Shown: positions 1-23,500, counted from the first letter of the stretch. The stretch: DNA of 27,906 nucleotides from Promethearchaeota archaeon (GCA_013375475.1 JABXKD010000049.1:1-27906), one strand, 5' to 3'. Made by a program: numbers and translations. Notes: generated by a model not told the origin, from the letters alone.

Positions 1-526
1 CTCTATCCCAATCAATACTAAATGGTTAGAAAACGGTTTAAACAATTTTAAGAGTGAAAAGGTTGCAGGAGTTTATGGCTATCCACTTACGCACTACGGA
101 GTATCTTTGTTTGAAAATATTATATATTCTATTAGCAGAGACCCCGGAAAAAGAAGATTCATAATAAGTAATGTTAAAAATATGAAAATAGGAAGATTTG
201 GTCCTTATTTTCATATTTTCCTATTTCTATGGTTTCCTATTACCGTCGCTAAAAAAATGAAAATAGGAGCTCTTGGCTTCACAAATGCAATTATCCGTAG
301 AGATTTATGGGAGAAATATAATATAAATGAAAAATTTGCTGGTGGGGGAGAAGATCATGATTGGGCGAGACATTGGGTAGCAAAAGGATTTGTTATAGTT
401 CATGAACCAAATTTTAAAGTTTATCATTCACATCATTATGGATCAATAGGTTGGATAAGACATTTTATTGGTTGGACCAAAATGACAAAAGAAATAGAAT
501 TTAAACCGCAAAAAAGAAATTTTTAA
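1..526 (+). CDS. Family 2 glycosyltransferase, 5'-partial (paralog of 11101..12015)
   Basis: Frame is open from base 2 (SIPINTKWLENGL...), so the track start at 107 is internal. Colinear with the C-terminal 174 codons of 11101..12015. Contains FTNAIIRR and GGEDHDW motifs. Confidence 0.9.
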   Translation, partial: SIPINTKWLENGLNNFKSEKVAGVYGYPLTHYGVSLFENIIYSISRDPGKRRFIISNVKNMKIGRFGPYFHIFLFLWFPITVAKKMKIGALGFTNAIIRRDLWEKYNINEKFAGGGEDHDWARHWVAKGFVIVHEPNFKVYHSHHYGSIGWIRHFIGWTKMTKEIEFKPQKRNF

Positions 527-549
527 AACAACATAAAAACAAATTAAAA
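1..549 (+). repeat. Long direct repeat, copy 1 (GT2 3' part plus ~23 bp downstream)
   Basis: Gap-free match to 11490..12038 (offset 11489); identity continues past the stop (aacaacataaaaacaaattaaaa). Confidence 0.95.
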
Positions 550-1097: not shown

Positions 1098-2570
1098 ATG
1101 AATATAAAGAAAATGAAACCCATAAAAAAGTCTATTACAAAAATAGGCTTATTGACGGTAAAGTTATTTGGTTTGATGGAAATCTTTATACTTTTTGGAA
1201 TTCAATTTTTCTGGATTATATACAAGGGAGATCTGGCACCTACTGAGAATATTTGGGATTTATTAGCAGTTTTATTCCCATTTTTAATAGCTTGCATGGT
1301 AGGGATATCCTGCCGAATTGAGAAGTATAGGAGATTGTTTCGCAAGATGGAATGGCTCATTCATTTATTACTTAGTATTAGTTTCTTAATTCTTTTTATT
1401 CTTTTACAGACACGAGATGAGTTTTTTCCTTACATTCCATTTACATGGCTGTATTATTTTTGGATCATTATAATTGGTTTAATGCTCATCTCTGCGATCA
1501 TAATGAACTTGGACAAGCCTTCACTCCTTACAAATCTTAAAGATAAACGTAAATTTAGCGTGTTTATGGGAATTCTTGCCGTCTCATGGTTAGCAACTCT
1601 CGGAATGATTGTACTTTCACGACATCCGGTATATTTTTGGATAGTTTCTTCAATTTTTCACTCAATCATGATTCCATTATCTATCAGCAATCATGAAAAA
1701 CATCCGGAAACACGCGATTCCCATGTTGTTTACCGGAATTTCAAGCAAATAATATTGAGAAAAACAGGTGAGATTCAAATAGAAAAGAAGGAATCCGTTC
1801 CAAAATTGCGTTCACGTCATTTAAACTTGTTTTTCTTGAACATGTTGATCGTTTTTTCAATAATAATGCAATGGGACCCTAATTATATGGCCACCACCGG
1901 CGCCATACAATATAATTATCACTTAATAGTTGAGCTATTTTTATCTCCTTTATTTTATTTAGGATTCGGAATTGCATTATTAAATACAAGGTTTAAATTT
2001 CCTGTTATAGGAGACGGCATGGTATTGCCCTTCATGGCGCTGTCAATCATGGATATTTATTCATTCGCCCCGCTTACTCTCGGCTATGCTATAATGAGGC
2101 TTTTTTTGCATGGGAGCAATCAAACATCCAATAGTTATTTTTCGACAATTATGGGTGTTACCCTTACTTGGACTCTCGGATTGTACCTATTCGCTTATTA
2201 TGATTTTTTAGATTTTGTCATCTTTTTGGTTTTTGGAGGAAAAAGTTGGTCGGGAGAGTTTTCAATTAAATTATTTATAGTTTTGATTCTAACTTTTACT
2301 TTTTGTATTAATCTGGGATTTTTTTCTCTTGAAAAACATGTATCAAGACGTAAGAAGGAGAAAAAGTCCATGGATGATGAGGGTAGCGAAAAAGCGGTTG
2401 AAGGATTCAAGCAAATGAAGGGATTTTTTGACCTCCTGAATGATCACGTCATGGATTTGAATAAAGAGGGTAGAAAATTAATTGAACTCGAAGATTTTTT
2501 TGAATTATTGGACAAGTCCGGGTTAGACGCGAAAAAAATTAAAACTATAGAGGAAGTGTTAAATGAGTAG
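1098..2570 (+). CDS. Polytopic membrane protein of unknown function with a charged C-terminal cytoplasmic domain
   Basis: About a dozen hydrophobic segments in two blocks separated by a charged loop; overlaps the next gene by 8 bp. Confidence 0.85.
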   Translation: MNIKKMKPIKKSITKIGLLTVKLFGLMEIFILFGIQFFWIIYKGDLAPTENIWDLLAVLFPFLIACMVGISCRIEKYRRLFRKMEWLIHLLLSISFLILFILLQTRDEFFPYIPFTWLYYFWIIIIGLMLISAIIMNLDKPSLLTNLKDKRKFSVFMGILAVSWLATLGMIVLSRHPVYFWIVSSIFHSIMIPLSISNHEKHPETRDSHVVYRNFKQIILRKTGEIQIEKKESVPKLRSRHLNLFFLNMLIVFSIIMQWDPNYMATTGAIQYNYHLIVELFLSPLFYLGFGIALLNTRFKFPVIGDGMVLPFMALSIMDIYSFAPLTLGYAIMRLFLHGSNQTSNSYFSTIMGVTLTWTLGLYLFAYYDFLDFVIFLVFGGKSWSGEFSIKLFIVLILTFTFCINLGFFSLEKHVSRRKKEKKSMDDEGSEKAVEGFKQMKGFFDLLNDHVMDLNKEGRKLIELEDFFELLDKSGLDAKKIKTIEEVLNE

Positions 2571-2589
2571 TTTTGAAGAATTAAAAAAA
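2281..2589 (+). repeat. ~310 bp direct repeat, copy 1 (last TM + cytoplasmic tail + start of next gene)
   Basis: Matches 3638..3946 at offset 1357; both encode GFFDLLNDHVMD...FFELLDKSGLDAKKIK and the next gene's M(S/G)SFEEL. Confidence 0.9.
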
Positions 2590-3927
2590 GGCAAATATCT
2601 CATATTGGTATTAGGACTACTTTTCGCCATTTCATGCATTAGCATCTATTTCTTCGGTAATGTTCTATTAGGTAATAATAGCAGCATTGAAATTCCGGGC
2701 GAAAAAATATCGCGTCCTCCTAAAGCTTCAGGATCGTGGTTTTTGGATAACATTACCATTGATCCTACCGGGGCAACATCGGGATCCCTGACCTGGGCTG
2801 AAGCAGTAGCCTTACCTGCCGGATGGTGTTCAGGAGCAGGAACTTGGGACGATCCCTACGTTATTGAAAATATCACTATTAACGCGAGCACGTCACCTAC
2901 GGGAAACGGTATATTTATAAATAATTCCAAGAACGATTATTTTGTAATCAATAACGTCACGGTTTACAACGCAGCTTCGGGCGGAATCACGTTGGAAAAT
3001 ACCAATAACGGAAGCCTAACAAATAATGATTGTTCAAATAACCATGAGGGCATTTTTTTGAATGAATGTGTTAATAACACGATTTCGGGAAACCACTTAT
3101 CGGGGAGCACGGATTGCGGGATATTACTATTTAATTGCGAAAACAATACGCTATTAAGAAATGTTGCAATAAATAATGATAAGGATGGAATGGGGTTAGC
3201 TTATAGTAATAATAATACATTATTCGGAAATATTGCAAGTAATAATCCGGATCTCGGAATATGGTTATGGTATTGCAATTACACTAATTTATCCGGAAAT
3301 TTAGCAAGTAATAATCTATATGTCGGTTTTTGGATTTATCATTCCGATCAAAATACTTTTTTTAATAATACAGTAAATTATAATGGTTATCATGGAATGG
3401 AGTTCATAGGTTCGGAGAATAACAGCATAATCAAGAACACCTTTCAAAACAACGAGGCATATGGAATTGTATTAAATACCGATTCAAACTTTAATCGCAT
3501 TTTTAAAAATACTCTTATAAATAATGTTCAAGGATGCATCATGGATTCCAGCACGGGAAATATATATTACAATAATAAATGTAGTGATGATCCTGGTCTT
3601 GATTTAGCAGGAATCATGCTTTTATTTATTAGCATGTTTTTGATTCTTACTATCATTTTTTACGTTTATTTGGGATTTTCTTCTCTTGAAAAATATTTAT
3701 CAAGACGAAAGAAGGACAAAAAATCCATGGATAAAAAGGATACTGGAAAAGCAGTTGAAGGATTAAAGCAATTGATGGGATTTTTTGACCTCCTGAATGA
3801 TCACGTAATGGACTCATATAAAGAGGGTAGAAAATCAATTGAACGCGAATATTTTTTTGAATTATTGGACAAGTCCGGGTTGGACGCGAAAAAAATTAAA
3901 TTATTAGAGGGAGAGTTAAATGGGTAG
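2563..3927 (+). CDS. Membrane-anchored right-handed parallel beta-helix (NosD/CASH-type) protein
   Basis: N-terminal TM, WCSGAGTWDDPYVIENITI cap, ~10 Asn-rich GIxLxxxxNNTxxxN repeats, C-terminal TM and tail. Confidence 0.88.
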   Translation: MSSFEELKKGKYLILVLGLLFAISCISIYFFGNVLLGNNSSIEIPGEKISRPPKASGSWFLDNITIDPTGATSGSLTWAEAVALPAGWCSGAGTWDDPYVIENITINASTSPTGNGIFINNSKNDYFVINNVTVYNAASGGITLENTNNGSLTNNDCSNNHEGIFLNECVNNTISGNHLSGSTDCGILLFNCENNTLLRNVAINNDKDGMGLAYSNNNTLFGNIASNNPDLGIWLWYCNYTNLSGNLASNNLYVGFWIYHSDQNTFFNNTVNYNGYHGMEFIGSENNSIIKNTFQNNEAYGIVLNTDSNFNRIFKNTLINNVQGCIMDSSTGNIYYNNKCSDDPGLDLAGIMLLFISMFLILTIIFYVYLGFSSLEKYLSRRKKDKKSMDKKDTGKAVEGLKQLMGFFDLLNDHVMDSYKEGRKSIEREYFFELLDKSGLDAKKIKLLEGELNG

Positions 3928-3946
3928 TTTTGAAGAATTAATAAAG
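3638..3946 (+). repeat. ~310 bp direct repeat, copy 2
   Basis: See 2281..2589; stop and start positions map exactly (2570/3927, 2563/3920). Confidence 0.9.
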
Positions 3947-5455
3947 TTGAGGGACGCAACGAAGAAATCCATGGCTACAGAAAGTTTACCAAGGAAAGAA
4001 CTGCAAGTAAAAAAAAGCGGGGTTGCAATCCTTGCAATTATTTTAGTAGGTTTAATTTCACCATTTATAATCTTGAACCTCACGGTAAAAGGACCGCCAT
4101 TAGTTTTTCCTGAAAAAGAAAGACATGTGCTCGAAGATTTCTGCGGAGCAGGGGTCGTAAACATTGTTGAAGATGAACGGGAATTCAATAATTTGACGAA
4201 GCTCGGCGTACATTGGGTGCGCACCAGTTTTCCTTGGATAAGTATTGAATGGAATAATGATCAATATGATTATTCTGTTTATGACGATTACGTGGCAAAT
4301 TGCACTAAATACAACATGAAAATAATCGCTCTATTGCTTTGTTCTCCGACATGGTTAAATTTAAGCGGGTGGAATTACCTTCCGCCGAAATATATCGATC
4401 ATTGGCTAGAGTTTGTAAATAAAACCGTCAGACGATATAAGGATACGGTCGCAGCTTGGGATATTTGGAATGAACCCGAGACCAAACGATACTGGGACGG
4501 ACCAATTGAAGATTACTACTATCTTTTCGGCCGAACTGTCAATTTAATTCATGATATTGACCCCAACCTTTATGTTATGGGGCCGTCACTTGCATCTGCC
4601 GGCTCGGGCTGGTTCCCCCCTAATTTAGAAGACATGTTTAAGCTAGGAATCCTGCAACACTTAGACGCAATTGACATGCATATTTATAACTACGATCCTG
4701 ACATGACGTATCAAGCAATTAAGCAGTATGTTACTCTAGGGAACAAGTATGGATTCAAGGGAGATTATGTAATTTCTGAAATGGGAAACCCTACCCAAGG
4801 AGCATATCCATTCGTGGTATCCATGGAAAAATTGGCCGAGAACGTGATAAAAAACCTGGTTATTGCTTCAGCGCTTCAAATTAAAACCTGTGTTTGGTTC
4901 TGTTCAAGAGATTTGAAAGCGTATGAAACCGAGTACTATCTACCTGACTCCGAATTGTGGTTTGGTTTATCTTATAATAATCTTACCTGGAAAAAAGGAG
5001 CTCACGCCTTCAGTTTATTCAGCAAGTTTTGCTCAAATAGCACGTATTGTCCGGATCTCATTATTAAAGAAGGAGGAATTTCAGCAACTGATCTCATGGC
5101 ATCCTTATATCGACAAGAGGATGGTACTTCAACCTTGATAATGTGGTACGCTCCAACGCTTTATGAAAGTGGAACAGTAAAGGTTAATCTTGACCTTTCC
5201 GCAATAGGGGGAAGCATTTTAATACATGATATTTACACGGGCACTAATAGGACTTTAGACGAAAATTTCGTGGTAGTTGGTGATGCACCGATATTTTTAA
5301 CCTTTCAACCAAAACAAATTAATGACTCCATCACATTACAAGTTCAAGAATCGATATTAGCAGTTGTACTATATATAAGCATGATCGGAATGTTCATCGC
5401 CTCAATTAGTCTCGTAGTGGTAATCCGTAAACCTAACAAAGCTTCAAAGATATAA
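3920..5455 (+). CDS. Membrane-anchored clan GH-A glycoside hydrolase (GH39/GH5-like)
   Basis: LGVHWVR..FPW..IE, WDIWNEP (acid/base), IDMHIY and VISEMG (nucleophile) motifs; N- and C-terminal TM helices. Confidence 0.88.
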   Translation: MGSFEELIKLRDATKKSMATESLPRKELQVKKSGVAILAIILVGLISPFIILNLTVKGPPLVFPEKERHVLEDFCGAGVVNIVEDEREFNNLTKLGVHWVRTSFPWISIEWNNDQYDYSVYDDYVANCTKYNMKIIALLLCSPTWLNLSGWNYLPPKYIDHWLEFVNKTVRRYKDTVAAWDIWNEPETKRYWDGPIEDYYYLFGRTVNLIHDIDPNLYVMGPSLASAGSGWFPPNLEDMFKLGILQHLDAIDMHIYNYDPDMTYQAIKQYVTLGNKYGFKGDYVISEMGNPTQGAYPFVVSMEKLAENVIKNLVIASALQIKTCVWFCSRDLKAYETEYYLPDSELWFGLSYNNLTWKKGAHAFSLFSKFCSNSTYCPDLIIKEGGISATDLMASLYRQEDGTSTLIMWYAPTLYESGTVKVNLDLSAIGGSILIHDIYTGTNRTLDENFVVVGDAPIFLTFQPKQINDSITLQVQESILAVVLYISMIGMFIASISLVVVIRKPNKASKI

Positions 5456-5506: not shown

Positions 5507-6496
5507 TTAAATGTTTCGATTAAATAATTTTTTAGTGTTATCTGGTAGATAGTTATACAATAAATTCTTCATTTTTTCATAAATTATACTTATACCACTT
5601 TGAATCCATTCTGCATCATAAGGATCCACTTCACTAATTGCTTTTCTAAATAGAGGAATATCATACATATTCATAGGGCAATTGCAAAACTTAAACGGAC
5701 ACCTTGTTAATTTATCATTAAATTTAATTCCTTCATATATGTTTCCAAGAGACTTATTAATTTGATAACAATAATGGATATCTCCATTTGGATAAATTGC
5801 ACCAACATTAAACCCTGCATTACATAATTTTCCATATTGGTGAAATATGTTAATATCCTTTTTTGTTAGACCAAAAATCTTAAGTTCTTTTTCACTATAG
5901 GAATCAGGGTAAAATTTTCCTTTGTACTTTCCCATATAAGGACAAAATGTTAAATCAATTCCCTGTTCTAAAAATTTTTTTTTATATTTTTCGACATCTT
6001 TCAAAAGTGGGGGATATCCAACCTCAACAGCAAAAATAGGAAATCCTCTGTTTTTTAATAAAAAAAAATTATGAATGTATCTACTTAATAAATTCTTTCT
6101 TTCTAATTCTTTAATGTGACATGAAGCTGTAATAAATAAGACCCTTTCAGGATCAATTTTTTCAGCAAATTCTTCTACTTTTTTAGGTGTCAAGTTAGAA
6201 TTAAAAGCAATGAAGTGTTTTCTTGTTAATTCAATACAGGCTTCAACTATATTTGGAGTTAAAAAAGGTTCTCCACCCGTAAAACTAATTCTATAAATCT
6301 TATTTGAATCGTTAAGAGTCTTATTTAAAGCAGAAATATTAATGGGATCAATTTTTGTATTTAATTCTGATGGCTCATCACAAATCACCAGGTTGCGCGC
6401 AAATCCCGCAATACAATAATCACACTCTAAATTACAATCATATGAAGTAACCAAGTTCAAACAAGCGTCATATTGTGGATTTCGCAAATTAGACAT
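5507..6496 (-). CDS. Radical SAM protein with SPASM/twitch-like C-terminal domain (paralog D)
   Basis: CNLECDYC, FTGGEP, LCNAG...YPNGDIHYC...LGNIY...CPxxxCNCP. Start moved to the ATG homologous to that of 8728..9759. Confidence 0.9.
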   Translation of the reverse strand: MSNLRNPQYDACLNLVTSYDCNLECDYCIAGFARNLVICDEPSELNTKIDPINISALNKTLNDSNKIYRISFTGGEPFLTPNIVEACIELTRKHFIAFNSNLTPKKVEEFAEKIDPERVLFITASCHIKELERKNLLSRYIHNFFLLKNRGFPIFAVEVGYPPLLKDVEKYKKKFLEQGIDLTFCPYMGKYKGKFYPDSYSEKELKIFGLTKKDINIFHQYGKLCNAGFNVGAIYPNGDIHYCYQINKSLGNIYEGIKFNDKLTRCPFKFCNCPMNMYDIPLFRKAISEVDPYDAEWIQSGISIIYEKMKNLLYNYLPDNTKKLFNRNI

Positions 6497-6522
6497 TATA
6501 AAAAATACCAAATTACGTATGG

Positions 6523-6540
6523 TAATAAATTATATCAAAT
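6523..6540 (-). promoter_or_regulatory. Putative TATA box for a leaderless transcript, repeated at 7608-7614 and 8696-8702
   Basis: Minus-strand TTTATTA lies 26 nt before the ATG of paralogs D, C and B; no Shine-Dalgarno. Confidence 0.45.
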
Positions 6541-6555
6541 CTATCCATAATACTA

Positions 6556-7581
6556 TTAAATCCAATATTTAAAAAGATATTTACGTAAAAATTTATTGCT
6601 CATAACTTTTTCGATGATTAATTTTCTAGTGTTATCTGTTAGATAGTTTTGCTTCCCATCAAAAATAAAATTTTTCACAAATTGGCTAATTCTATATTTA
6701 GAAGGTTGAATCCATTCTGCATCATAAGAGCCAACTTCACTCATTGCTTTTCTAAAGAGGTAAGGATCATAAATATTCATAGGGCAATTGCATAACTTAA
6801 ATGGACACCTTACTAATTTATCCTTAAATTTAATTCCTTCATAGACGTTTCCAAAAGATTCATTAATTAATACACAATAACGGGTATCTCCATTTGGATG
6901 AATTATACCAACATTATACCCTGCATTACATAATTTTCCATATTGGTGAAACCAGTCAATAATATCCTTTTTTGTTAGGCCCAAAATCTTAAGTTCTTTT
7001 TCACTATAGGAATCAGGGTAAGATTTTCCTTTATAGCTTCCAAAATAAGGGCTATATGTTAAATCAATTCCCTGTTCTAAAAAAATTTTTATATATTTAT
7101 CACTCTCTTCCAAAAGTGGAGGATATCCTACTTCAATAGCCCTAATATTAAATCCTCTGTTTTTACATAATAAAAAATTATCAATGTACCTACTTAATAA
7201 ATTCCTTCTTTCTAATTCTTTAATGTGACATGCAGCATCAATACATAAAACCCTTTCAGGATCGATTTTTTCAGCAAATTCTTTCACACTTTTGGGTGTC
7301 AAGTTAGTATTAAAACTAATAAAGTGTTTTTTTGTTAATTCAATACAAGCTTCAACTATATTTGGAGCTAAAAAAGGTTCTCCCCCCGTAAGAGTAATCT
7401 TGTAAATCTTATTTGAATCGTTAAGAATTTTATTTAAAGCAAAAAGATTAAGAAAAGTTTTTGTCAATATTTTTGATACGTATCTTATTCCAGCAATACA
7501 GTAATTGCACTCTAAATTACAATGATATGAAGTAGCCAAGTGCAACCAAGCATCATATTGAGGATTTCGCAAATTAGACAT
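6556..7581 (-). CDS. Radical SAM protein with SPASM/twitch-like domain (paralog C)
   Basis: CNLECNYC, LTGGEP, same auxiliary Cys pattern. Confidence 0.9.
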   Translation of the reverse strand: MSNLRNPQYDAWLHLATSYHCNLECNYCIAGIRYVSKILTKTFLNLFALNKILNDSNKIYKITLTGGEPFLAPNIVEACIELTKKHFISFNTNLTPKSVKEFAEKIDPERVLCIDAACHIKELERRNLLSRYIDNFLLCKNRGFNIRAIEVGYPPLLEESDKYIKIFLEQGIDLTYSPYFGSYKGKSYPDSYSEKELKILGLTKKDIIDWFHQYGKLCNAGYNVGIIHPNGDTRYCVLINESFGNVYEGIKFKDKLVRCPFKLCNCPMNIYDPYLFRKAMSEVGSYDAEWIQPSKYRISQFVKNFIFDGKQNYLTDNTRKLIIEKVMSNKFLRKYLFKYWI

Positions 7582-7640
7582 TATAAAAAATACCAAATTA
7601 CGTATGGTAATAAATTATATCAAATCTATCCATAATACTA

Positions 7641-8669
7641 TTAAATCCAATGTTTAAAAAGATATTTACGTAAAAATTTATTGCTCATAACTTTTTCGAT
7701 GATTAATTTTCTAGTGTTATCTATTAGATAGTTTTGTTTCCTTTCAAAAAATAAATTTTTCATATATTCTTTAATTCTATTTTTAAAAGGTTGAATCCAT
7801 TCTGCATCATAAGGGCCAACTTCACTTATTGCTTTTCTAAAAAGGTAAGGATCATAAATATTCACAGGGCAATTGCATAACTTAACTGGACACCTTATTA
7901 ATTTATCATTAAATTTAATTCCTTCATAGATGTTTCCAAGAGATTTATTAATGAAAAAACAATAACGGATATCTCCATCTGGATAAATTATACAAACATT
8001 ATACCCTGCATTACATAATTTTCCATATTGGTGAAACCAGTCAATAATATCCTTTTCTGTTAGGCCCAAAATCTTAAGTTCTTTTTCACTATAGGAATCA
8101 GGGTAAAATTTTCCTTTATAGCTTCCCAAATAAGGGCTAAATGTTAAATCAATTCCCTTTTCTAAAAAAATTTTTATATATTTATCGCTCTCTTTCAAAA
8201 GTGGAGGATATCCAACTTCAATAGCCCTAATATTAAATCCTCTGTTTTTACATAATAAAAAATTATGAATGTATCTACTTAATAAATTCCTTCTTTCTAA
8301 TTCTTTAATGTGACAGGAAGCATCAATAGATAAAACCCTTTCAGGATTAATTTTTTCAGCAAATTCTTCTACTTTTTTAGGTGTCAAGTTAGAATTAAAA
8401 GCAATGAAGTGTTTTTTTGTTAATTCAATACAAGCTTCAACTATATTTGGAGTTAAAAAAGGTTCTCCACCAGTAAAATTAATCCTGTAAATCTTATTTG
8501 AATTGTTAAGAGTCTTTTTTAAAGCAGAAATATTAATGGGATCAGCTTTTGTAAATATATCTGATACGTATCTTATTCCAGCAATACAGTAATTACACTC
8601 TAAATTACATTGATATGAAGTAGCCAAGTGCAAACAAGCATCATATTGAGGATTTCGCAAATTAGACAT
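7641..8669 (-). CDS. Radical SAM protein with SPASM/twitch-like domain (paralog B)
   Basis: CNLECNYC, FTGGEP, same auxiliary Cys pattern. Confidence 0.9.
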   Translation of the reverse strand: MSNLRNPQYDACLHLATSYQCNLECNYCIAGIRYVSDIFTKADPINISALKKTLNNSNKIYRINFTGGEPFLTPNIVEACIELTKKHFIAFNSNLTPKKVEEFAEKINPERVLSIDASCHIKELERRNLLSRYIHNFLLCKNRGFNIRAIEVGYPPLLKESDKYIKIFLEKGIDLTFSPYLGSYKGKFYPDSYSEKELKILGLTEKDIIDWFHQYGKLCNAGYNVCIIYPDGDIRYCFFINKSLGNIYEGIKFNDKLIRCPVKLCNCPVNIYDPYLFRKAISEVGPYDAEWIQPFKNRIKEYMKNLFFERKQNYLIDNTRKLIIEKVMSNKFLRKYLFKHWI

Positions 8670-8727
8670 TATAAAAAATACCAAATTACGTATGGTAATA
8701 AATTATTTTAAATCATCCATAATAATA

Positions 8728-9759
8728 TTAAATCCAATGTTTTAAAAGATATTTACGAGAAAATTTATTTCTCATGATTTTTTCGATGATTAATTTTCTA
8801 GTGTTGTCTATTAGATAGTTTTGTTTCCTTTCAAGAAATAAATTTTTCATATTTTCTTTAATTCTATTTTTAAAAGGTTGAATCCATTCTGCATCATAAG
8901 GGCCAACTTCACTTATTGCTTTTCTAAAGAGAGGAAGATCATACATATTCATAGGGCAATTGCAAAACTTAACTGGACACCTTATTAATTTATCCTTAAA
9001 TTTAATTCCTTCATAGATGTTTCCAAGAGATTTATTAATTGCAAAACAATAACTGATATCTCCATTTGGATGAATTATACCAACATTATACCCTACATTA
9101 CATAATTTTCCATATTGGTGAAACCAGTCAATATACTTTTTTGTTAGACCCAAAATCTTACGTTCTTTTTTACTATAGGAATCAGGGTAAAATTTTCCTT
9201 TATATGGTCCAACATAAACCCAAAATGTTAAATCAATTCCCTTTTCTAAAAAATATTTTTTATATTTATCGCTCTCTTTCAAAAGTGGGGGATATCCAAC
9301 TTCAATAGCCCCAATATTAAATCCTCTGTTTTTACATAATAAAAAATTATGAATGTATCTACTTAATAAATTCTTTCTTTCTAATTCTTTAATGTGACAT
9401 GAAGCGTTAATAAATAAGACCCTTTCAGGATTAATTTTTTCAGCAAATTCTTTTACTTTTTTAGAGGTCAAGTTAGTATTAAAACTAATGAAGTGTTCTT
9501 TTGTTAATTCAATACAAGCTTCAACTATATTTGGAACTAAAAAAGGTTCTCCACCTGTAAAATTAATTCTGTAAATCTTATTTGAATTGTTAAGAGTCTT
9601 TTTTAAAGCAGAAATATTAATGGGATAAGTTTTTGTATATAATACTGATGGATTTGCTCCATATTGTGTTGCTTCACAATAATTACACTCCAAATTACAT
9701 TGATATGAAGTAATCAAGTGCAAATAAGCATCATATTGTGGATTTCGTATATTAGACAT
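8728..9759 (-). CDS. Radical SAM protein with SPASM/twitch-like domain (paralog A)
   Basis: CNLECNYC, FTGGEP, same auxiliary Cys pattern. Confidence 0.9.
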   Translation of the reverse strand: MSNIRNPQYDAYLHLITSYQCNLECNYCEATQYGANPSVLYTKTYPINISALKKTLNNSNKIYRINFTGGEPFLVPNIVEACIELTKEHFISFNTNLTSKKVKEFAEKINPERVLFINASCHIKELERKNLLSRYIHNFLLCKNRGFNIGAIEVGYPPLLKESDKYKKYFLEKGIDLTFWVYVGPYKGKFYPDSYSKKERKILGLTKKYIDWFHQYGKLCNVGYNVGIIHPNGDISYCFAINKSLGNIYEGIKFKDKLIRCPVKFCNCPMNMYDLPLFRKAISEVGPYDAEWIQPFKNRIKENMKNLFLERKQNYLIDNTRKLIIEKIMRNKFSRKYLLKHWI

Positions 9760-9859
9760 TATAAAAAATACTAAATTATGTCTAGTAGAAAATTGATATA
9801 AATAAATTAAAGAATTAGGTATTATTAAATTTTCGTTAGCTAAGGCAGAAGGACTAAAA

Positions 9860-10105
9860 TTGAGACCCCGATTTTTAAAAACTCTAATATCTCTAGATCG
9901 GGTATGCGGTTATTGTGGATATAAATTCAATCATGAGATAATAGAAATACTAAAAATAAATAAAAAAACAAGATTAGGAGTGAATCAAATAAGAAAAGGT
10001 TATAATATTTTCTGTCCGATGTGTTGCTCTTTTTCAAAATTCTTAGATCGTTTTTATGACCTAATTATTTATGAAAATTTAAATTTCATAGATTGTACTA
10101 ACTGA
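9860..10105 (+). CDS. Small putative zinc-ribbon protein
   Basis: Two CxxC pairs (CGYC, CPMC); TTG start; no family recognised. Confidence 0.45.
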   Translation: MRPRFLKTLISLDRVCGYCGYKFNHEIIEILKINKKTRLGVNQIRKGYNIFCPMCCSFSKFLDRFYDLIIYENLNFIDCTN

Positions 10106-10279
10106 AGATGGGAAACATTATAAATTTGGAATTGATATGATTAAAATCATATTAATTGCGTTAAATTTAAAGGAGTTAGAATAAATCTCCAAAACCAAGA
10201 GAAATAAATTCTGTGAAATATAAAAGATAAAATTTGCTTATAAGTTATAGGAACAAGAAAAATAATATAATCCAAAGAA

Positions 10280-10576
10280 ATGGGTAAGTTCAGTAATTTT
10301 TTCTCTGAATTCAAGGTCAACGATTATCTTATTCTTAGATTAGAAACCAACAGGACTAACATATATATCAAGGGTAAAATGTTTAGGCTGTGTAAATTTT
10401 TGCTATTAAGTATCCCTAAAGCGAAAGTCAAGGAGTATGATGATATAGAATCCATTGATGAGGCAGCAGAGAGAATAGATTCAACACCAGAGGGAAGAAA
10501 ATTAAGAAGATATCATATATCCGCTCAAACGGAATTTTTTGGACATTGTTCTAATCTCCAAGCGTGGTATGAAAAC
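10280..10576 (+). pseudogene. Truncated N-terminal module of the expanded Lokiarchaeal LRR-associated protein family
   Basis: EFKVNDYLILRLE..TNIYIKG..F..CKFLLL.IP...IESIDEAAE...TEFFGHCSNLQAWYEN matches my recollection of this family. After codon 10574-76 the ORF becomes unrelated sequence up to the stop at 10780. Confidence 0.65.
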
Positions 10577-10709
10577 ATTTCTATAACAATACTAATTTGC
10601 AGAATTAGTATTATATCCATAATAAGTAGGCTAAATGAGATAATGGTTTTAATAATAACTAATCCCGTTAAAAGATTAAAACGCTGTCTAATGAGCATCA
10701 GTCTACTAC

Positions 10710-10752
10710 ACCTAACAAAGCTTCAAAGATATAATCTCAATTTCTTAGTAGT
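10710..10752 (+). repeat. Short direct repeat, right copy
   Basis: See 5431..5473. Confidence 0.9.
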
Positions 10753-10818
10753 AAATACACTCTATCACTTCCTACAATAAAAATAAATGATATTATATAA
10801 AATCCTAATCTATAATAA

Positions 10819-10880
10819 GTAGAAGGGTCAAACTCCTAATATTCTTCCTTACTCTGTTTTTAGCCCTCTGACCCTTCTAC
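10819..10880. repeat. Perfect 12 bp inverted repeat followed by a T-rich tract (hairpin/terminator-like)
   Basis: gtagaagggtca (10819-30) / tgacccttctac (10869-80), 38 nt spacer, T-runs at 10884-10896. Confidence 0.75.
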
Positions 10881-10904
10881 ACCTTTTTATTTTTTTCTTA
10901 ATTT

Positions 10905-10985
10905 TTCAATACTTCCAGTTCCCTAAATACCTTCTATAAAACCGGTAAAACAACCGCTTCTATAGGGGGTAGGGGCGGTATTGAA
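10905..10985 (+). ncRNA. Candidate structured RNA hairpin upstream of the GT2 gene
   Basis: Nested stems 10905-13/10977-85, 10928-38/10961-71 and 10943-46/10953-56, with several G.U pairs that work only on the + strand. Confidence 0.35.
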
Positions 10986-11100
10986 CTTTTCAATAAAAAT
11001 TTTTATATTAATGTAACTTAGATAGATTTGTTTTATTTTAGTTTTTAAAAAAAGAGAATTCCAATTAAGTAATTGAAAAATACATTTAAAGCGAATTTTC

Positions 11101-12015
11101 ATGTTAGTAAATGAAGTTTTATGCAATAAATGTGGACAATTTTATAAAAAAACTAGTAGATATTGTATTAATTGCGAAGCTAAAGACATTGAATTAATAA
11201 AGCAGCATAAAAATTATGGAAAAAAAAATCTTGAAACTTCAATAATTATTAGAACAAAGAATGAAGAAAGATATTTAGAACATGTTTTGTTAATGCTAAA
11301 AAAACAAACTTATAAAAATTTTGAGATTGTAATTGTTGATGATACTTCAACTGATAAAACATTAGAAATTGCTAAAAAATATAATTGTAAAATTGTTAAA
11401 ATACCAGAAGGAAAATTTACCTATCCATATGCTTGTAATTTTGGTATTAGAGAAAGTATCGGTGAAAATATTGTGTTTTTAAGTGGGCACTCTATCCCAA
11501 TCAATACTAAATGGTTAGAAAACGGTTTAAACAATTTTAAGAGTGAAAAGGTTGCAGGAGTTTATGCGTATCCACTTAGTCACTATGGAGTAACTACGTT
11601 TCAAAGAATTTTATATTTTTTTAGCCAAGACTTCGGAAATAGAAGATTCATAATAAGTAATGTTAATAATATGAAAATAGGAAGACTTGATCCTTATTTT
11701 CATATTTTCCTATTTCAATGGTTTCCTATTACCGTCGCTAAAAAAATGAAAATAGGATCACTTGGCTTCACAAATGCAATTATTCGTAGAGATTTATGGG
11801 AGAAATATAATATAAATGAAAAATTTGCTGGTGGGGGAGAAGATCATGATTGGGCGAGACATTGGGTAGGAAAAGGATTTGTTATAGTTCAGGATCCAAA
11901 GTTTAAAGTTTATCATTCACATCATCATAAATTTATAGGTTGGATAAAACAATTTATTGGTTGGACCAAAATGACAAAAGAAATAGAATTTAAACCGCAA
12001 AAAAGAAATTTTTAA
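11101..12015 (+). CDS. Family 2 glycosyltransferase with N-terminal zinc-ribbon
   Basis: SIIIRTKNEE, IVIVDDTSTDKT, CNFGI, FLSGH and GGED motifs; N-terminal CNKC...CINC. Confidence 0.92.
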   Translation: MLVNEVLCNKCGQFYKKTSRYCINCEAKDIELIKQHKNYGKKNLETSIIIRTKNEERYLEHVLLMLKKQTYKNFEIVIVDDTSTDKTLEIAKKYNCKIVKIPEGKFTYPYACNFGIRESIGENIVFLSGHSIPINTKWLENGLNNFKSEKVAGVYAYPLSHYGVTTFQRILYFFSQDFGNRRFIISNVNNMKIGRLDPYFHIFLFQWFPITVAKKMKIGSLGFTNAIIRRDLWEKYNINEKFAGGGEDHDWARHWVGKGFVIVQDPKFKVYHSHHHKFIGWIKQFIGWTKMTKEIEFKPQKRNF

Positions 12016-12038
12016 AACAACATAAAAACAAATTAAAA
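11490..12038 (+). repeat. Long direct repeat, copy 2 (may extend further 5'; copy 1 is cut by the window edge)
   Basis: See 1..549. Confidence 0.95.
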
Positions 12039-14192: not shown

Positions 14193-14888
14193 ATGAAAAT
14201 ATCAGGATCAGGAACACTCTCTAAGATGAATCTTAACGACACAATATCAAGTTCGGGTTCAGTTAGAATAACTGGAGAAGTCGAATGTTTAGGTTTCAGA
14301 TCTTCAGGTTCCGCGAAAGGGGATGGAAATTTAATTGTTCATGGTGATTTTAAAAGCTCTGGTTCTTTTAATTTACGCGGGGCTCTAAATACAGATGGAA
14401 GTGCCAGATCATCGGGGTCCGCTACTATAGAAAAGGAACTTTTTGTTAAAGGAAAATTGGAAAGCTCTGGCTCACTACGCGTGGGAAATGGAGTTGAAGC
14501 ACTCGAAGGTATTAGATTTTCAGGCTCTTCTAGAGTGGATGGGGGTATAATCTCAGAAAAGGTCATTGAAATTGACGGATCAACTACCATTAGGGGAGAT
14601 ATAAAAGCAAACGATGTGCTTTTTGGGACTAATGCCCCATTTAGCGGAAAAAGAGGAGTGAAGCATCCGTACAAAGTTTTTGGTAAAATTTTTGCTGAGA
14701 ACGAACTAGAGTTAATAAATACCTTTGTTGATGGAGATGTTCGAGGTCGAGAGGTAAAAATTGGAAGAAAAACAGAGGTTACGGGAAAAGTTTATTATAT
14801 CGATTCTATAGAAGTTGACCCAAAAACTACCCTAGCCCATCAGCCAATTCAAATCTCCGAAATCACGGAAGATAAAATAACGAAATAA
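14193..14888 (+). CDS. Bactofilin-like polymer-forming beta-helix protein (resembles Bacillus YhbE/YhbF type)
   Basis: ~17 aa (S/I)SGSxxxxGxxxx repeats; MKISGSG start, GEVEC, and ELELINTFVDGDVRGREVKIG...V.Y end; GGAGG RBS. Confidence 0.78.
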   Translation: MKISGSGTLSKMNLNDTISSSGSVRITGEVECLGFRSSGSAKGDGNLIVHGDFKSSGSFNLRGALNTDGSARSSGSATIEKELFVKGKLESSGSLRVGNGVEALEGIRFSGSSRVDGGIISEKVIEIDGSTTIRGDIKANDVLFGTNAPFSGKRGVKHPYKVFGKIFAENELELINTFVDGDVRGREVKIGRKTEVTGKVYYIDSIEVDPKTTLAHQPIQISEITEDKITK

Positions 14889-14909
14889 TGAAAATAGTGG
14901 AGGATTATT

Positions 14910-15827
14910 ATGTCAGAAGAACCAAATAGAGAAAATGATAATTTTAAGGAGAGGAAAGAGTTTGATCGGAACAAAAGGGTTATAAACTACGAACTGGAAT
15001 GTCTAAGGGAAGATTTTTTAGAAGCTATTGAGGAATTACAGGATGATTTTAAGGAGCATGTTGATGATTTAAAAGAGAGAAAGGAAGAAATAACCGTTGA
15101 ATTAAAAGAAGAACTTCAAGATTTAGTAGATGAGAAAGAATATTTATTGCGAGATATTGATGATGTAAGAGACCAATTGGAAAATTTTGAAGAAGGTGCT
15201 ACAGAAAAAATTGAAGATGCGTATGAAAAATTACTAAAATTAAAAACTAAGAAGGAAAAATCCTTAGAAAAACATCTAGAAAAGTTAGAAAAAATACTTG
15301 AAAAAGCAAAAAAAAAGGCGGCAAAACGAATTAACATATCCGTTGACGAGGATACGAGCGAAGAGTGGAGGGATTGGTCGGACGAGTTAGGTTCTTCTGT
15401 TTCAGAGCTGATTCGAAAATCGATGAGATTCGTAAAAGACAACATTGGAGACCTTTCAAAACTTGACGAAATGGGGGAAACTATCGAACGCGCAGTCAGG
15501 GAATCTGGAATAGAAGATTTAGGAGAAAAATTAGAGCGTGAGTTCAAAGGGAAAAAAATCAAACCGAAGATAAAAATCAATCTCGAGGCTTCAGACGATA
15601 AAGACAGAATTAAAAAGAGGGTCAGGGGACTAATCAAGCTACAAAATAGTTTACCGATTGATAAACTCGCTCAAGCCCTTAACCGTGCAATCGAAGACGC
15701 AGAAAACCTTATATACGAATTAGTCGACGAGGGAATTGAAGGATCGTTGGAAGAGAATGTGTTTAAATTTACGAGTGCTCCTGAGGAAGTGATTGTAAAG
15801 ATTAACGAACTGATTGACAGAATGTAA
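14910..15827 (+). CDS. Coiled-coil protein with central ribbon-helix-helix motif and C-terminal winged-helix-like domain
   Basis: E/K-rich heptads over ~aa 25-135; KRINISVDEDTSEEW...SSVSELIRKSM (CopG-like RHH); LPIDKLAQAL...AENLIYELVDEGIEGSL (wHTH/PCI-like). Confidence 0.75.
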   Translation: MSEEPNRENDNFKERKEFDRNKRVINYELECLREDFLEAIEELQDDFKEHVDDLKERKEEITVELKEELQDLVDEKEYLLRDIDDVRDQLENFEEGATEKIEDAYEKLLKLKTKKEKSLEKHLEKLEKILEKAKKKAAKRINISVDEDTSEEWRDWSDELGSSVSELIRKSMRFVKDNIGDLSKLDEMGETIERAVRESGIEDLGEKLEREFKGKKIKPKIKINLEASDDKDRIKKRVRGLIKLQNSLPIDKLAQALNRAIEDAENLIYELVDEGIEGSLEENVFKFTSAPEEVIVKINELIDRM

Positions 15828-20575: not shown

Positions 20576-23500
20576 TTATTTTTCTTTTATTCCATTTTCG
20601 GTTTTTTTTTCATATTGAATAGTTTCGACATTACTTTCGAACTGTTCTTTAACTAAATCTTCTCGAGATGCAATGTCTTTTATTGGTTTTGTCTTTTTAC
20701 CTTTTTTAATCTTCTTTCTTAGTTTTCTCGATTTTCTTACTATAGCAGGATATTTAAAGCGAACTTCATACAAGGTAAAAGCAACGACCAAAGCACCAAA
20801 TACTCCAGCTATTAGAATAACTAGCATAGTGAAATCAGGTGGTGTAACTGATACAACATTTAATGTAATTTTATAAATCTCAAAATTGTATTCATCTCCC
20901 GCGGAAGCAGTAATGGTTATTGTATAAGTCCCTGTTGGTATATTCTCTAATTCATCTTCGTAAGTACCATCATCTTCTGGATCTAATAGAGTACCTTGAC
21001 CATACGCCCATCTATAGGTTACATTGGCATTAGTAATTGGTCCTCCAAAATCAAAATCAGTTAATTCTAGTGATAATAGAAAATGGTCACTAGGTTTGAT
21101 GTTGAAGTAGGAATTTCCAGAAGTAGTGCTAATTATCGTAGCTATTTTATTTAAAGTAATCCTTAGGCTTAAAGATTTAACTTGGAAGTTGTTAGCGTGA
21201 GCGATAATCGTGAATAAATTCACTCCAACTTTTAAGTTAGTTGTATCTAATAATAATGTGTATTGGTTCATAGCTATAATTTCAGGGAGAATATCAGAAT
21301 AAGCCCCACCTATTAATTGAATAATGCCTCCACTAATATGAGTTTTAGTCTGGTTATCTGAATATTTAACTGTAATATTTAAAATACTACTAAAAGGAAG
21401 TTCATATACGGGATCGATCGTTTTTTCTTCCGAATTTAAAAATAATGATATTTCAGAAGCTCTTTCAGATACTTTAACATAAAATTGAAAAGATCGGGGT
21501 TGGTAATTTTCTAAATACGCTAAAACCGATAGTATTGTAATTCCTTGTTTTAAATCATTAGTATTTAATAAGTAATAGTATTGACCACCAATATCACTAA
21601 AATAGTGGGTAACATTACCCGCTCCTAAGAGAGATATTGTCGCTCCGCTTAAATGTTGTATTGTTATATTATCTTGATAAAAGACTGTTAAGTTTAAGAA
21701 TTGATTTACTTCAACACTCAAAGTATCTGTTTCATTTATTTGAGTGCCTTCGTATAATAATCGAAAATCACTGGATCGTTCAATTACTTTAACATAAAAT
21801 TGAACACTTAGCGTTAAATAATTAGTATAATGAGCGTTTATTGTAAGGACTGTTATTCCCTGTTCTAAATCATTTGTATTAATGGTAAAATTATATTGAG
21901 CCCCAATTTCACTAAAATTACCCCATCCAATTAATTCTACATTTGCGTTATTCAAAAACTGCTTTGTTGAGTTGGTTCGATAAAAAAATGTGATATTTAT
22001 AAACTCGTTTACTTCCACTTCTAATGTATATTTATCATCTCGTGTATAATCATTTAAAACCAGCTCCAATTCTGTGGGAATTTCGTATACATCTACATAT
22101 ATCTGGATAATTTGGGATTGGAAATCATCTAATTGAGCTGTAATTGTTATGACATTAAATCCTAATCCAATATCACTTGAGTTTAGATTGTAATAGTATT
22201 GAGTTCCAATATCGTTGAAATTTCCTATTCCTATAAAAGTTATGTTAGCTCCGCTTAAATGTGTTTTTGATAAATTATCTTGATAAAAGATAGTTAAATT
22301 TAATAACTGATTGAATTCAACTTGGATTGTGTCTTTCTCAACCTTCTCTTCATCTTCCACATATAATTTCAATTCCGTTGCTTTCTCTACTACTTCAATA
22401 AAAATTTGTATATTTTGGAATTGGTAATTATTTAGTTGAGCAGAAATTGTTATAGCATTAAATCCTAGTCCTAGATCGCTCGTGTTTAAACTATAATAAT
22501 ATTGAGTTGCTAATTCGGTGAAGGGCCCCAAACCAATGAAATCTACAATAGCTCCACTTAAGTGTAATTTGGTTAAATTATCTTGATAGAAGACGGTTAC
22601 GTTTAATAATTGATTAATATTTACTCGAATTGTATCTTTCTCAACCTTCTCGTCACCCTCAACATGTAGTTTTAATTCTGTTGCCCTTTCAACTACTTCG
22701 AAATAAATTTGGATCGTTTGAGATTGATAAGTACTAAATTGTGCTTCTATAGTGACTATTGTTATTCCTTGATCTAAATCATTCGTGTTTAAATTATAAT
22801 AATACTGAGATCCGGTTTCAGTAAAATTATCCCAACCCAATGATACAGTTGCTCCTGAGATGTGTAATTTAGTTACATTATCGCTGTAAAACACGGTAAG
22901 ATTAATAAATTGATTAACTTCAACTTTTATTGTCTCAAGTGCGATTGTCGGTGTATCATCTACTAATAATAGTAGTTCAGACGCAATGTCGTAAACTTCG
23001 ACATATATTTGAATACTTTGAGATTCGTAATTACCTATTTGAGCGATTATTGATAATACATTGAATCCTAAACTTAGATTATTTGAGTTTAAGGTATAGT
23101 TATATTGATTACCAATTTCACTGAAATTACCAACGGTTAGAAGGGTAACTTCTGCTCCATTAAGATGAGCTTTCGTTACATCATCTCGGTAAAACACAGT
23201 TAAATTTAAAATTTGATTTACTTCGATTTGAATAATATCATTATTTGCTTTTTGAGCGTCATTTACATATAATTCAAATTCGGTGGCTCTTTTAAAAACT
23301 TCAACATAGAGCTGAATCAATTGTGATGTATAATTTTCAGATTGGGCATTTATAGTTAACACATTAAAACCTAAGTTTAATGCATCTGAATTTATGGTGA
23401 TACTATATTGCTCATTAACCTCAGTTAAATCTCCAAAACTCGTTATTGTTACGTTAGCCCCACTTAGATGTTGACTAGTAAGATCGTCTCGGTAAAAAAC

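Follow-up and report, generated by a model that had tools for sequence, protein, structure and literature searches.

Within a 27,906-nucleotide (nt) stretch of DNA from a Promethearchaeota archaeon (GCA_013375475.1, JABXKD010000049.1:1-27906; hereafter the window), positions 5507 to 9759 hold four intact open reading frames (ORFs) arranged head to tail on the minus strand, each encoding a radical S-adenosylmethionine (SAM) protein. An initial annotation made from the sequence alone had described four tandem radical SAM paralogs here, and the ORFs bear this out. The array consists of the following features.

8728-9759, minus strand: paralogue A, 343 amino acids (aa), the first gene in the direction of transcription, an ORF matching PF04055 at 36.1 bits (gathering cut-off 29.5)
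7641-8684, minus strand: paralogue B, 347 aa as an ORF opened by TTG, 342 aa from the likely ATG at 8669
6556-7596, minus strand: paralogue C, 346 aa, likely ATG start at 7581
5507-6511, minus strand: paralogue D, 334 aa, likely ATG start at 6496, with the longest post-cluster loop and a C-terminal tail that is stopped early
6512-6555, 7597-7640 and 8685-8727, minus strand: inter-copy spacers, about 59 nt from stop to ATG and almost identical among the copies

The ORFs of D, C, and B are listed from a TTG lying five codons upstream of an ATG. An ATG followed by MSN[L/I]RNP opens copy A as well as 18 of the 19 further copies, complete or partial, that the N-terminal motif located in related loci; the true starts of D, C, and B are therefore probably the ATG codons at 6496, 7581, and 8669. 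Deviating N-termini in the related loci are MSNLQNP (L019_945) and MANLRNP (L021_842). All residue numbers below refer to copy B counted from its MSNLRNP start. The copies share 72-85% identity as protein and 83-93% as DNA; B and C are 83% identical. Over the 90 nt upstream of the genes, a single base separates C from D, and B departs at a few. The G+C content of the array, 0.26-0.29, is below that of most of the window. The repeat unit of approximately 1085 bp exceeds the 500-bp period limit of Tandem Repeats Finder, which reported no repeat. The stop codon of copy D is premature, as remains of the usual tail can still be read downstream of it; the D orthologue L013_650 retains 345 aa, and L019_4259 is also short, at 332 aa.

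Copy-specific unitigs with 100% identity to the array were recovered from three metagenome runs of one study, which may be the window's own source; no contig spanning the array was obtained from the four runs searched. Unitig depth resembled that of the flanks, at 12-19.7 versus 17.2-17.9 in run X1 and 43-56 versus 44-53 in run X2. Because these depths match, the four copies belong to one and the same genome, and collapsed strain variants do not explain them. No further copy of the array gene was found elsewhere in the genome.

All four proteins matched PF04055 at 33.7-38.7 bits, with nothing more specific in Pfam, and no curated family of Pfam beyond PF04055 or of NCBIfam was reached above its cut-off by any copy. 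The best NCBIfam match for A, B, and D was NF038073 (STM4011 family), at 25.6-42.2 bits versus a cut-off of 200, and they are not members. The protein atlas returned only generic "radical SAM" cluster names. An exhaustive search of 1.84 billion representatives placed 261 representative clusters in the family at an expectation value (E) up to 1e-30, which makes it a family of modest size. None of the four copies and none of the 81 aligned relatives departs from the CxxxCxxC motif, C21-X3-C25-X2-C28. The complete set of columns invariant in these relatives is C21, C25, C28, G68, E69, P70, P155, G182, P190, C219, N224, C237, G245, C260, and C265, with C267 nearly so; all four ORFs keep the GGE motif that follows strand 2. 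The eight cluster cysteines (C21, C25, C28, C219, C237, C260, C265, and C267) are identical in the four copies, in agreement with the near-invariance of the Cys ligands described initially.

Five of these cysteines lie in the C-terminal part, as C219-X17-C237 with G232-X4-C237, followed by C260-X4-C265-X-C267. We compared this layout with the seven-Cys SPASM motif (CX9-15GX4C-gap-CX2CX5CX3C-gap-C) and with the twitch hairpin (CX9-15GX4C), the latter as given in PMC6231123. The SPASM motif is absent, since there are five Cys and the second part reads CX4CXC, and no match to PF13186 was seen at E up to 0.01. The hairpin is present, with predicted strands at 225-228 and 233-235 between C219 and C237. 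PMC6231123 regards the twitch domain as a shortened SPASM domain that holds a single auxiliary cluster, and it assigns a CX4CXC motif to the sactisynthase SkfB, whose active site is the inner cavity of six parallel strands, the top being occupied by SAM and its cluster. Judged by their sequences, the five C-terminal Cys of the array proteins would suffice for one auxiliary cluster.

An AlphaFold2 model of copy B, built on the 81 relatives, had a pLDDT (predicted local distance difference test) of 89.1 and a pTM (predicted template modelling score) of 0.83. In it, six core strands alternate with helices to form a partial (beta/alpha)6 barrel. The structure search against representatives (VIA) gave radical SAM fold matches with Z scores of 8-16.5 overall: BlsE 16.5, SkfB 16.3, anSME 15.1, viperin 14.0, and MoaA 13.8, followed by DesII 12.4, BtrN 11.2, and SpeY 8.8. 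In Foldseek the top match was anSME (E 1.6e-9, template modelling score of about 0.5, 21% identity over about 296 columns), with SuiB also among the top matches. By sequence profile the best match in the PDB was the peptide epimerase EpeE/YydG (E 5e-9, the N-terminal third only), and no solved structure came closer by sequence than that. Taken from sequence and predicted structure, then, the four copies are members of an uncharacterised, SkfB-like family of twitch radical SAM proteins.

The differences among the copies are concentrated. The initial annotation had quoted short strings in five strands and in the auxiliary Cys region, and every one is present. In the order D/C/B/A they read ACLNL/AWLHL/ACLHL/AYLHL in strand 1 (b1; model residues 11-16), ISF/ITL/INF/INF in strand 2 (b2; 61-66), FITAS/CIDAA/SIDAS/FINAS in strand 4 (b4; 112-118), IFAV/IRAI/IRAI/IGAI in strand 5 (b5; 147-153), FCPYM/YSPYF/FSPYL/FWVYV in strand 6 (b6; 175-179), and HYCYQ/RYCVL/RYCFF/SYCFA in the auxiliary Cys region. 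Throughout the family one strand face is conserved as hydrophobic (L13, L15, I63, F65, I115, A117, I147, A149, L175, and F177), and the other is highly variable in the lower strand and conserved toward the top, near the SAM-binding motifs. Over the six core strands, 12 of 18 positions on the family-variable face differ among the four copies, compared with 4 of 19 on the hydrophobic face (Fisher p 0.008). Because the variable face opposes the hydrophobic one, which packs on the helices, it would form the barrel interior, and with it the proposed substrate pocket. The first reading had named outward-facing or random placement of the variable residues as evidence against itself; as modelled, the variation instead sits on the face opposite the hydrophobic one.

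The loop after the CxxxCxxC motif (residues 29-48) differs at 15 of 20 positions and, as had been claimed, in length, copy D having 7 residues more than B and C, and copy A 2 more. Residues 235, 238, and 239 around the auxiliary Cys237 each occur in three or four variants. By structural class, the variable residues number 34 of 106 in helices, 25 of 62 in strands, and 32 of 122 in loops. The statement that helices are nearly invariant therefore did not hold, though the nonsynonymous divergence (dN) of helices relative to the gene-wide synonymous divergence (dS) is low, at 0.45-0.66. The C-terminal tail (residues 291-342; about 7644-7799 in the DNA of copy B) is hypervariable as well, at 37 of 52 positions, a feature that the initial annotation had overlooked. 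It occurs in the Asgard copies only, being mostly absent in distant relatives, and is cut short in D and L019_4259. The tail is helical and basic, is modelled with a pLDDT of 63-80, and ends ...KFLRKYLFKHWI; it may be a docking or membrane-association segment.

We then asked how these positions evolve. Pairwise dN/dS ratios (omega; Nei-Gojobori) among the four copies were 0.67-1.01. In the clade, omega between paralogue types reached 1.9, with several whole-gene pairs above 1; within orthologue groups it was 0.46-0.74, most pairs falling at 0.46-0.65, apart from two outliers above 1 based on under 8 synonymous changes. Over 20 full-length copies, the maximum-likelihood (ML) estimate under GY+F3X4+G4 was a gene-wide omega of 0.75. 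Site-class models, fitted on a fixed ML tree with a single scaling factor for branch lengths, gave log-likelihoods of -5825.4 for M0, -5635.8 for M1a, and -5589.6 for M2a; twice the log-likelihood difference (2ΔlnL) between M2a and M1a was 92.5. The M2a classes were omega0 of 0.11 (53% of sites), omega of 1 (37%), and omega2 of 3.8 (10%). A robust subset of 10 sequences with a strongly supported tree also preferred M2a (2ΔlnL 22.9, omega2 3.8, 7% of sites).

The sites assigned to the omega2 class with posterior above 0.95 were 14 (b1), 32, 34, and 35 (loop), 44, 116 (b4), 127, 148 (b5), 211, 239, and 310. Those added above 0.8 were 30, 33, 90 (b3), 161, 178, 181, and 183 (b6 and just after), 210, 269, 316, and 333. 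The site-wise dN/dS comparison that the initial annotation had proposed as a check returned a class with omega above 1 that includes sites in its barrel strands, in the loop, and next to the auxiliary Cys237. Of the selected sites within strands, all five belong to the variable face (p 0.02). Using residue sets fixed beforehand from the model and from family conservation, dN over gene-wide dS in all six pairs was 1.8-2.5 for the interior face, 0-0.9 for the outward face, and 2.0-5.0 for the loop. Two or three nucleotide changes were present in 153 of the 420 differing codons.

The array itself turns over. The copies are mosaic and their spacers homogenised, and this combination of mosaic copies with near-identical spacers indicates that gene conversion occurs. 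Synonymous differences are slightly denser near amino-acid differences, at 8.3-8.5% of codons at distance 1-2 versus 5.6-6.1% at distance 3-10, which would fit old differences protected from conversion. Compared with the near-identical contig L013, the flanking genes show a dS of 0.003-0.007 and copy D a dS of 0.042. A codon tree of the 20 full-length copies placed types A, C, and D in orthologue groups with 100% bootstrap support, each with two other assemblies (A with L010_371 and L019_945, C with L009_357 and L019_3174, D with L013_650 and L019_4259); copy B branches as sister of the C group. In L009 and L019, D again follows C, and paralogue types absent from this genome exist in relatives.

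Related Asgard contigs carry 2-4 full copies, often followed by an N-terminal remnant of 73-78 aa. The remnant, seen at 3402-3638 of L007, 970-1206 of L012, about 9275-9487 of L020, and 1224-1445 of G041 C176, is 61-62% identical to B, nearly the same across assemblies, and abuts a convergent gene for a family 2 glycosyltransferase (GT2). Either a truncated gene that has been conserved or a scar that became fixed would account for it. None of the 40 related genomes searched (24 of the same genus, 16 of the same order) has an array gene, which makes the gene accessory; it is present in three other species-representative assemblies, reached through the loci.

Examination of the window around the array revealed the following genes.

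1-538, plus strand: partial second GT2 copy at the contig start, about 92% identical in nucleotides to 11389-12027 and followed by the same downstream sequence
1098-2570, plus strand: polytopic membrane protein, 490 aa, with many hydrophobic segments and no Pfam or NCBIfam match
2563-3927, plus strand: NosD-type parallel beta-helix protein, 454 aa (PF05048, E 4e-40; PF13229)
3920-5455, plus strand: membrane-anchored glycosidase-like protein, 511 aa, convergent with the array (PF02449 GH42, 25.3 bits versus a cut-off of 21; NEP motif)
10280-10780, plus strand: 166-aa ORF with no family match, of which the part at 10577-10772 is conserved beside GT2 in relatives
11101-12015, plus strand: GT2, 304 aa (PF00535, E 2e-23)

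The same partners, namely the GT2, the glycosidase-like protein, the beta-helix protein, the 490-aa membrane protein, and the 166-aa ORF, accompany the array in the window and in the Asgard relatives, in changing order and orientation. The glycosidase-like gene adjoins arrays in L016, L019, and L020, the beta-helix gene in L019, and the polytopic membrane protein gene in L016, L019, L020, and L021. In L007, L012, and L020 the immediate neighbour of the array is a GT2 orthologue, which in L019 is found close by. The GT2, glycosidase-like, beta-helix, and membrane-protein genes are kept beside the arrays of L016, L019, and L020 despite rearrangement. Since the contig starts inside the second GT2 copy, two direct GT2 copies bracket a block of about 11 kb that holds the array.

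Other features of the window are recorded here for completeness. An ORF with a tRNA-editing domain (PF04073) at 659-1246 runs 149 nt into the 490-aa membrane protein gene as listed, and the start of that protein probably lies further downstream than 1098; at the corresponding place in L019 there is no tblastx match to the tRNA-editing-domain ORF. A bactofilin-domain protein (PF04519) followed by a 305-aa protein with weak apolipoprotein-like helical-repeat matches, at 14193-15827, might form a cytoskeletal pair. On the minus strand, two very large ORFs overlap, at 20576-25294 (1572 aa) and 25291-27870 (859 aa), neither with a Pfam or NCBIfam match; the one PADLOC match they give is weak, to a type IV Cas11 model (E 2e-4), and the adjoining 378-aa ORF has none. 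A diversity-generating retroelement was considered for the array and set aside, as the variation is spread over the whole gene and Pfam identified no reverse transcriptase family among the window's 19 ORFs.

Outside the Asgard archaea the family is single-copy: 31 loci were fetched, and the 28 non-Asgard ones each hold one copy. A Pfam scan of the neighbours in 26 of these 28 loci found glycosyltransferases within about 4 kb in 10 (L022, L023, L024, L025, L026, L029, L030, L039, L044, and L049). The closest non-Asgard relatives are among these 10. A Nitrospiraceae locus of that kind (about 50% identity) holds three GT2 genes, a GH30-like gene, a GT4 gene, a methyltransferase gene, and a B12 radical SAM gene. 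A Pacearchaeota locus that is also among the closest (51% identity) holds GT17, GT2, and an ABC-2 exporter pair. An orthologue of the window glycosidase in the Nitrospiraceae locus was considered and rejected (BLASTP E 1.7, with only the NEP region alike), and a shared orthologue of the window membrane protein was likewise rejected. In L027 and L028, from the Bacteroidota-related Ignavibacteriales and Melioribacteraceae, the single-copy gene has another set of neighbours that is conserved there: GBBH-like_N, an HD_assoc phosphohydrolase, DUF192, and an EVE domain, with no glycosyltransferase nearby; these relatives may be a separate subfamily with another role.

Fused relatives offer stronger evidence for a glycan link than the neighbourhoods do. 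A word-index search gave two longer relatives, and the exhaustive search yielded more fused forms. The best match of that search was itself a radical SAM-GT2 fusion (P0124, 51% identity). Others are GT8-radical SAM (P0183, L039), GT4-radical SAM (P0264), radical SAM-AGE epimerase (P0122, L044), and DUF6625-radical SAM (P0184) fusions, together with a borderline radical SAM-GT2 fusion (P0236). Ten relatives have an N-terminal extension of 110-130 residues in which no Pfam match was found. Proteins of approximately 600 to 1300 residues with multiple radical SAM stretches also occur among the relatives. Four such stretches, one of them of this family, stand in a single protein at 7845-11732 of L042 and in P0195 (1260 aa) and P0121 (1313 aa), from bacteria that include a metagenome-assembled genome of Binatia, and these four-stretch proteins sit in clusters of five or more radical SAM genes. 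By neighbourhood or by fusion, members of the family are recurrently associated with glycosyltransferases, and we propose for them a working class of glycan-associated radical SAM enzymes.

The above considerations lead us to favour, as somewhat probable, a reading in which the four copies are pocket-diversified glycan-modifying radical SAM enzymes, each taking a different sugar or position. The initial annotation had proposed a specificity-diversified enzyme set in an uncharacterised pathway, acting on related substrates or in turn on one, and had suggested nucleotide sugars or lipids for assays; such a set would fit the strand-face pattern, the sites with omega above 1, the retained A, C, and D orthologues, and the glycosyltransferase genes and fusions. 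A single known substrate for the family, which would have told against that proposal, is assigned by no curated family or solved structure. We infer the location of the pocket in three dimensions, the sugar substrate, the chemistry, and the biological driver.

As proposed, a SAM-cleaving [4Fe-4S] cluster would be bound by C21, C25, and C28, and the five C-terminal Cys would provide one auxiliary cluster site. A nucleotide-, lipid-, or polymer-linked glycan unit would enter the inner cavity of the barrel, where the 5'-deoxyadenosyl radical would abstract hydrogen from a sugar C-H. By analogy with the sugar dehydrogenases BtrN and SpeY, the auxiliary cluster could handle the electron. The sugar might be oxidised, epimerised, or deoxygenated, as other carbohydrates are by BtrN, SpeY, DesII, and BlsE. 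The family would work with glycosyltransferases, and in this Asgard lineage it would have expanded to a tandem array inside a surface-glycan cluster. There the copies would be pushed apart, or kept distinct despite gene conversion, at the interior face, the post-cluster loop, and the flanks of Cys237, so that each could accept a different sugar or position, and gain and loss of array copies between strains would vary the surface glycan. We raise as a possibility, and tentatively, that the array is a glycan-diversifying device in which every paralogue adds its own radical-mediated modification to a surface-glycan sugar and in which duplication, loss, and conversion combine with pocket selection to produce strain-level surface variation, most plausibly under pressure from viruses.

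Several observations weigh against the glycan-modifying reading with its diversified pocket. When strand faces were not assigned in advance, a periodicity test reached only p 0.06, and the initial claim of hypervariability at alternating strand residues and in the loop accordingly stands for the assigned faces and for the loop, its face-free form being marginal. The designation of one face as interior comes from strand alternation in DSSP and from textbook geometry for such barrels, and not from distances in the model. In the robust subset only sites 33, 167, 183, and 239 exceeded a posterior of 0.9. Gene conversion is known to inflate site-model selection tests; in a single-tree analysis of these copies it may have inflated the selection signal. 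Omega is also raised in neighbouring genes, at 0.26-0.58 and, for GT2, at 0.71-1.22, and therefore the whole cluster evolves fast. Glycosyltransferases are not near the gene in 16 of the 26 loci scanned, including all 7 Ignavibacteria and Melioribacteraceae loci, and three of the 16 are radical-SAM-rich clusters. Lastly, the peptide-modifying proteins SkfB, anSME, SuiB, and EpeE stand at equal rank among the structural neighbours.

The caveats on conversion, family variability, and geometry keep alive a rival in which redundant duplicates drift wherever constraint is weak, the pattern recording where the fold tolerates change and no selection for new specificities; they leave the descriptive result as it is. 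The positions that vary among the paralogues coincide with the family's most variable columns (Spearman 0.55), which equally fits weak constraint, and the 37% of codons with omega of 1 point the same way. So do the truncated copies left in L007, L012, and L020 and D's shortened tail, as signs of ongoing decay and turnover, and an orthologue omega that is still 0.46-0.65 amid fast neighbours. We nonetheless consider drift unlikely. All cluster Cys and the GGE motif are kept in the four ORFs, 53% of codons evolve at omega of 0.11, and two or more other assemblies have kept distinct orthologues of types A, C, and D, with the C-then-D order conserved. Furthermore, both data sets favour M2a above the nearly neutral M1a, interior-face dN is about two-fold above gene-wide dS in all six pairs, and more than one nucleotide has changed in many of the differing codons.

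That the proteins are instead peptide or protein maturases of the SkfB, anSME, or EpeE type, each copy tuned to a peptide or to the nearby secreted beta-helix or glycosidase-like protein, appears to us quite unlikely. This reading has the Foldseek matches to anSME and SuiB, the SkfB Z score, the EpeE/YydG profile match, and the CX4CXC motif in its favour, the last shared with SkfB as described in PMC6231123. Still, there is no N-terminal recognition element of the kind used for peptides made by ribosomes and modified after translation (RiPPs), as b1 starts at residue 11 and the cluster motif at 21. The spacers of about 59 nt are too short for precursor genes, and among ORFs of at least 30 aa in 9700-11150 no precursor-like gene was recognised, shorter or more distant ones lying outside the scope of that search. 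The context and fusions in other lineages are glycosyltransferases and not peptide-processing genes, and the sequence matches fall far below family cut-offs (for example, PapB at 32-38 bits versus 340).

Very improbable is a viperin-like antiviral set making modified nucleotides and diversified in an arms race, for although the gene is patchily distributed (in none of the 40 related genomes), low in G+C relative to most of the window, marked by a positive-selection signal, and weakly matched to viperin (NCBIfam NF038283 at 30.7-37.1 bits, PADLOC pVip at E 7e-12 to 3e-10, and the Z score of 14.0), the PADLOC matches cover only the N-terminal cluster-binding part (profile 3-103 of 257), the NCBIfam scores are far below the cut-off of 180, the five-Cys twitch domain is not in the matched viperin models, no PADLOC family was found in the five neighbouring proteins scanned (the tRNA-editing-domain gene at 659-1246 having been left out), and the conserved partners are glycan genes.

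If the glycan-modifying reading holds, the arrays also suggest that the surfaces of Asgard archaea, a group whose envelopes and dealings with viruses are little understood, vary from strain to strain; should it fail, what is left is a fast-evolving duplicate set of an uncharacterised enzyme, of modest interest. To our knowledge, sugar-tailoring radical SAM enzymes are known almost only from antibiotic pathways, and the present family would carry such chemistry into the ordinary surface-glycan clusters of many anaerobic bacteria and archaea. Twitch radical SAM enzymes acting on carbohydrates are already known. Our literature searches on this family and on Asgard radical SAM arrays, with supplements outside their scope, found no paper, and neither the recurrent glycosyltransferase fusions nor the tandem array with a pocket-centred diversifying signal turned up among the results they listed. 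We know of no earlier radical SAM family whose substrate pocket is under diversifying selection, a point on which no literature search was made. As close paralogues on one scaffold with about 20-30 differing candidate pocket positions, the four copies offer a handy start for mapping the specificity determinants of twitch enzymes.

Comparison with known enzymes places the array proteins as follows. The STM4011 family model NF038073 is the only curated model to align nearly full length (profile 11-255 of 278), but the scores are far below 200, and that family, to go by its model name, is uncharacterised too. The best Foldseek match, anSME (4k36-4k39), has the same GX4C hairpin arrangement, whereas it carries a seven-Cys SPASM domain with two auxiliary clusters and modifies protein Cys or Ser, in place of the five Cys found here. 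BlsE (7vob), BtrN (4m7t), SpeY (7wzv), and DesII (8hzy) share the fold class, BlsE being the top VIA match, and BtrN and SpeY were also found by sequence profile or phmmer (E 1e-7 to 2e-3). These four act on carbohydrate-type substrates, as the array proteins would by analogy. They are, however, 10-18% identical and are single genes of antibiotic pathways, unlike the tandem surface-glycan arrays, and their reactions are not transferable by homology. SkfB of Bacillus subtilis (6efn) differs in having an N-terminal RiPP recognition element and in acting on a peptide, whereas the window proteins have no such element, are 15% identical to it, and lie among glycan genes. It nevertheless shares with them the partial (beta/alpha)6 barrel and C-terminal twitch domain (aligned over 254 residues) and the five C-terminal Cys, arranged as one Cys before the hairpin, GX4C after it, and then CX4CXC (the motif as in PMC6231123).

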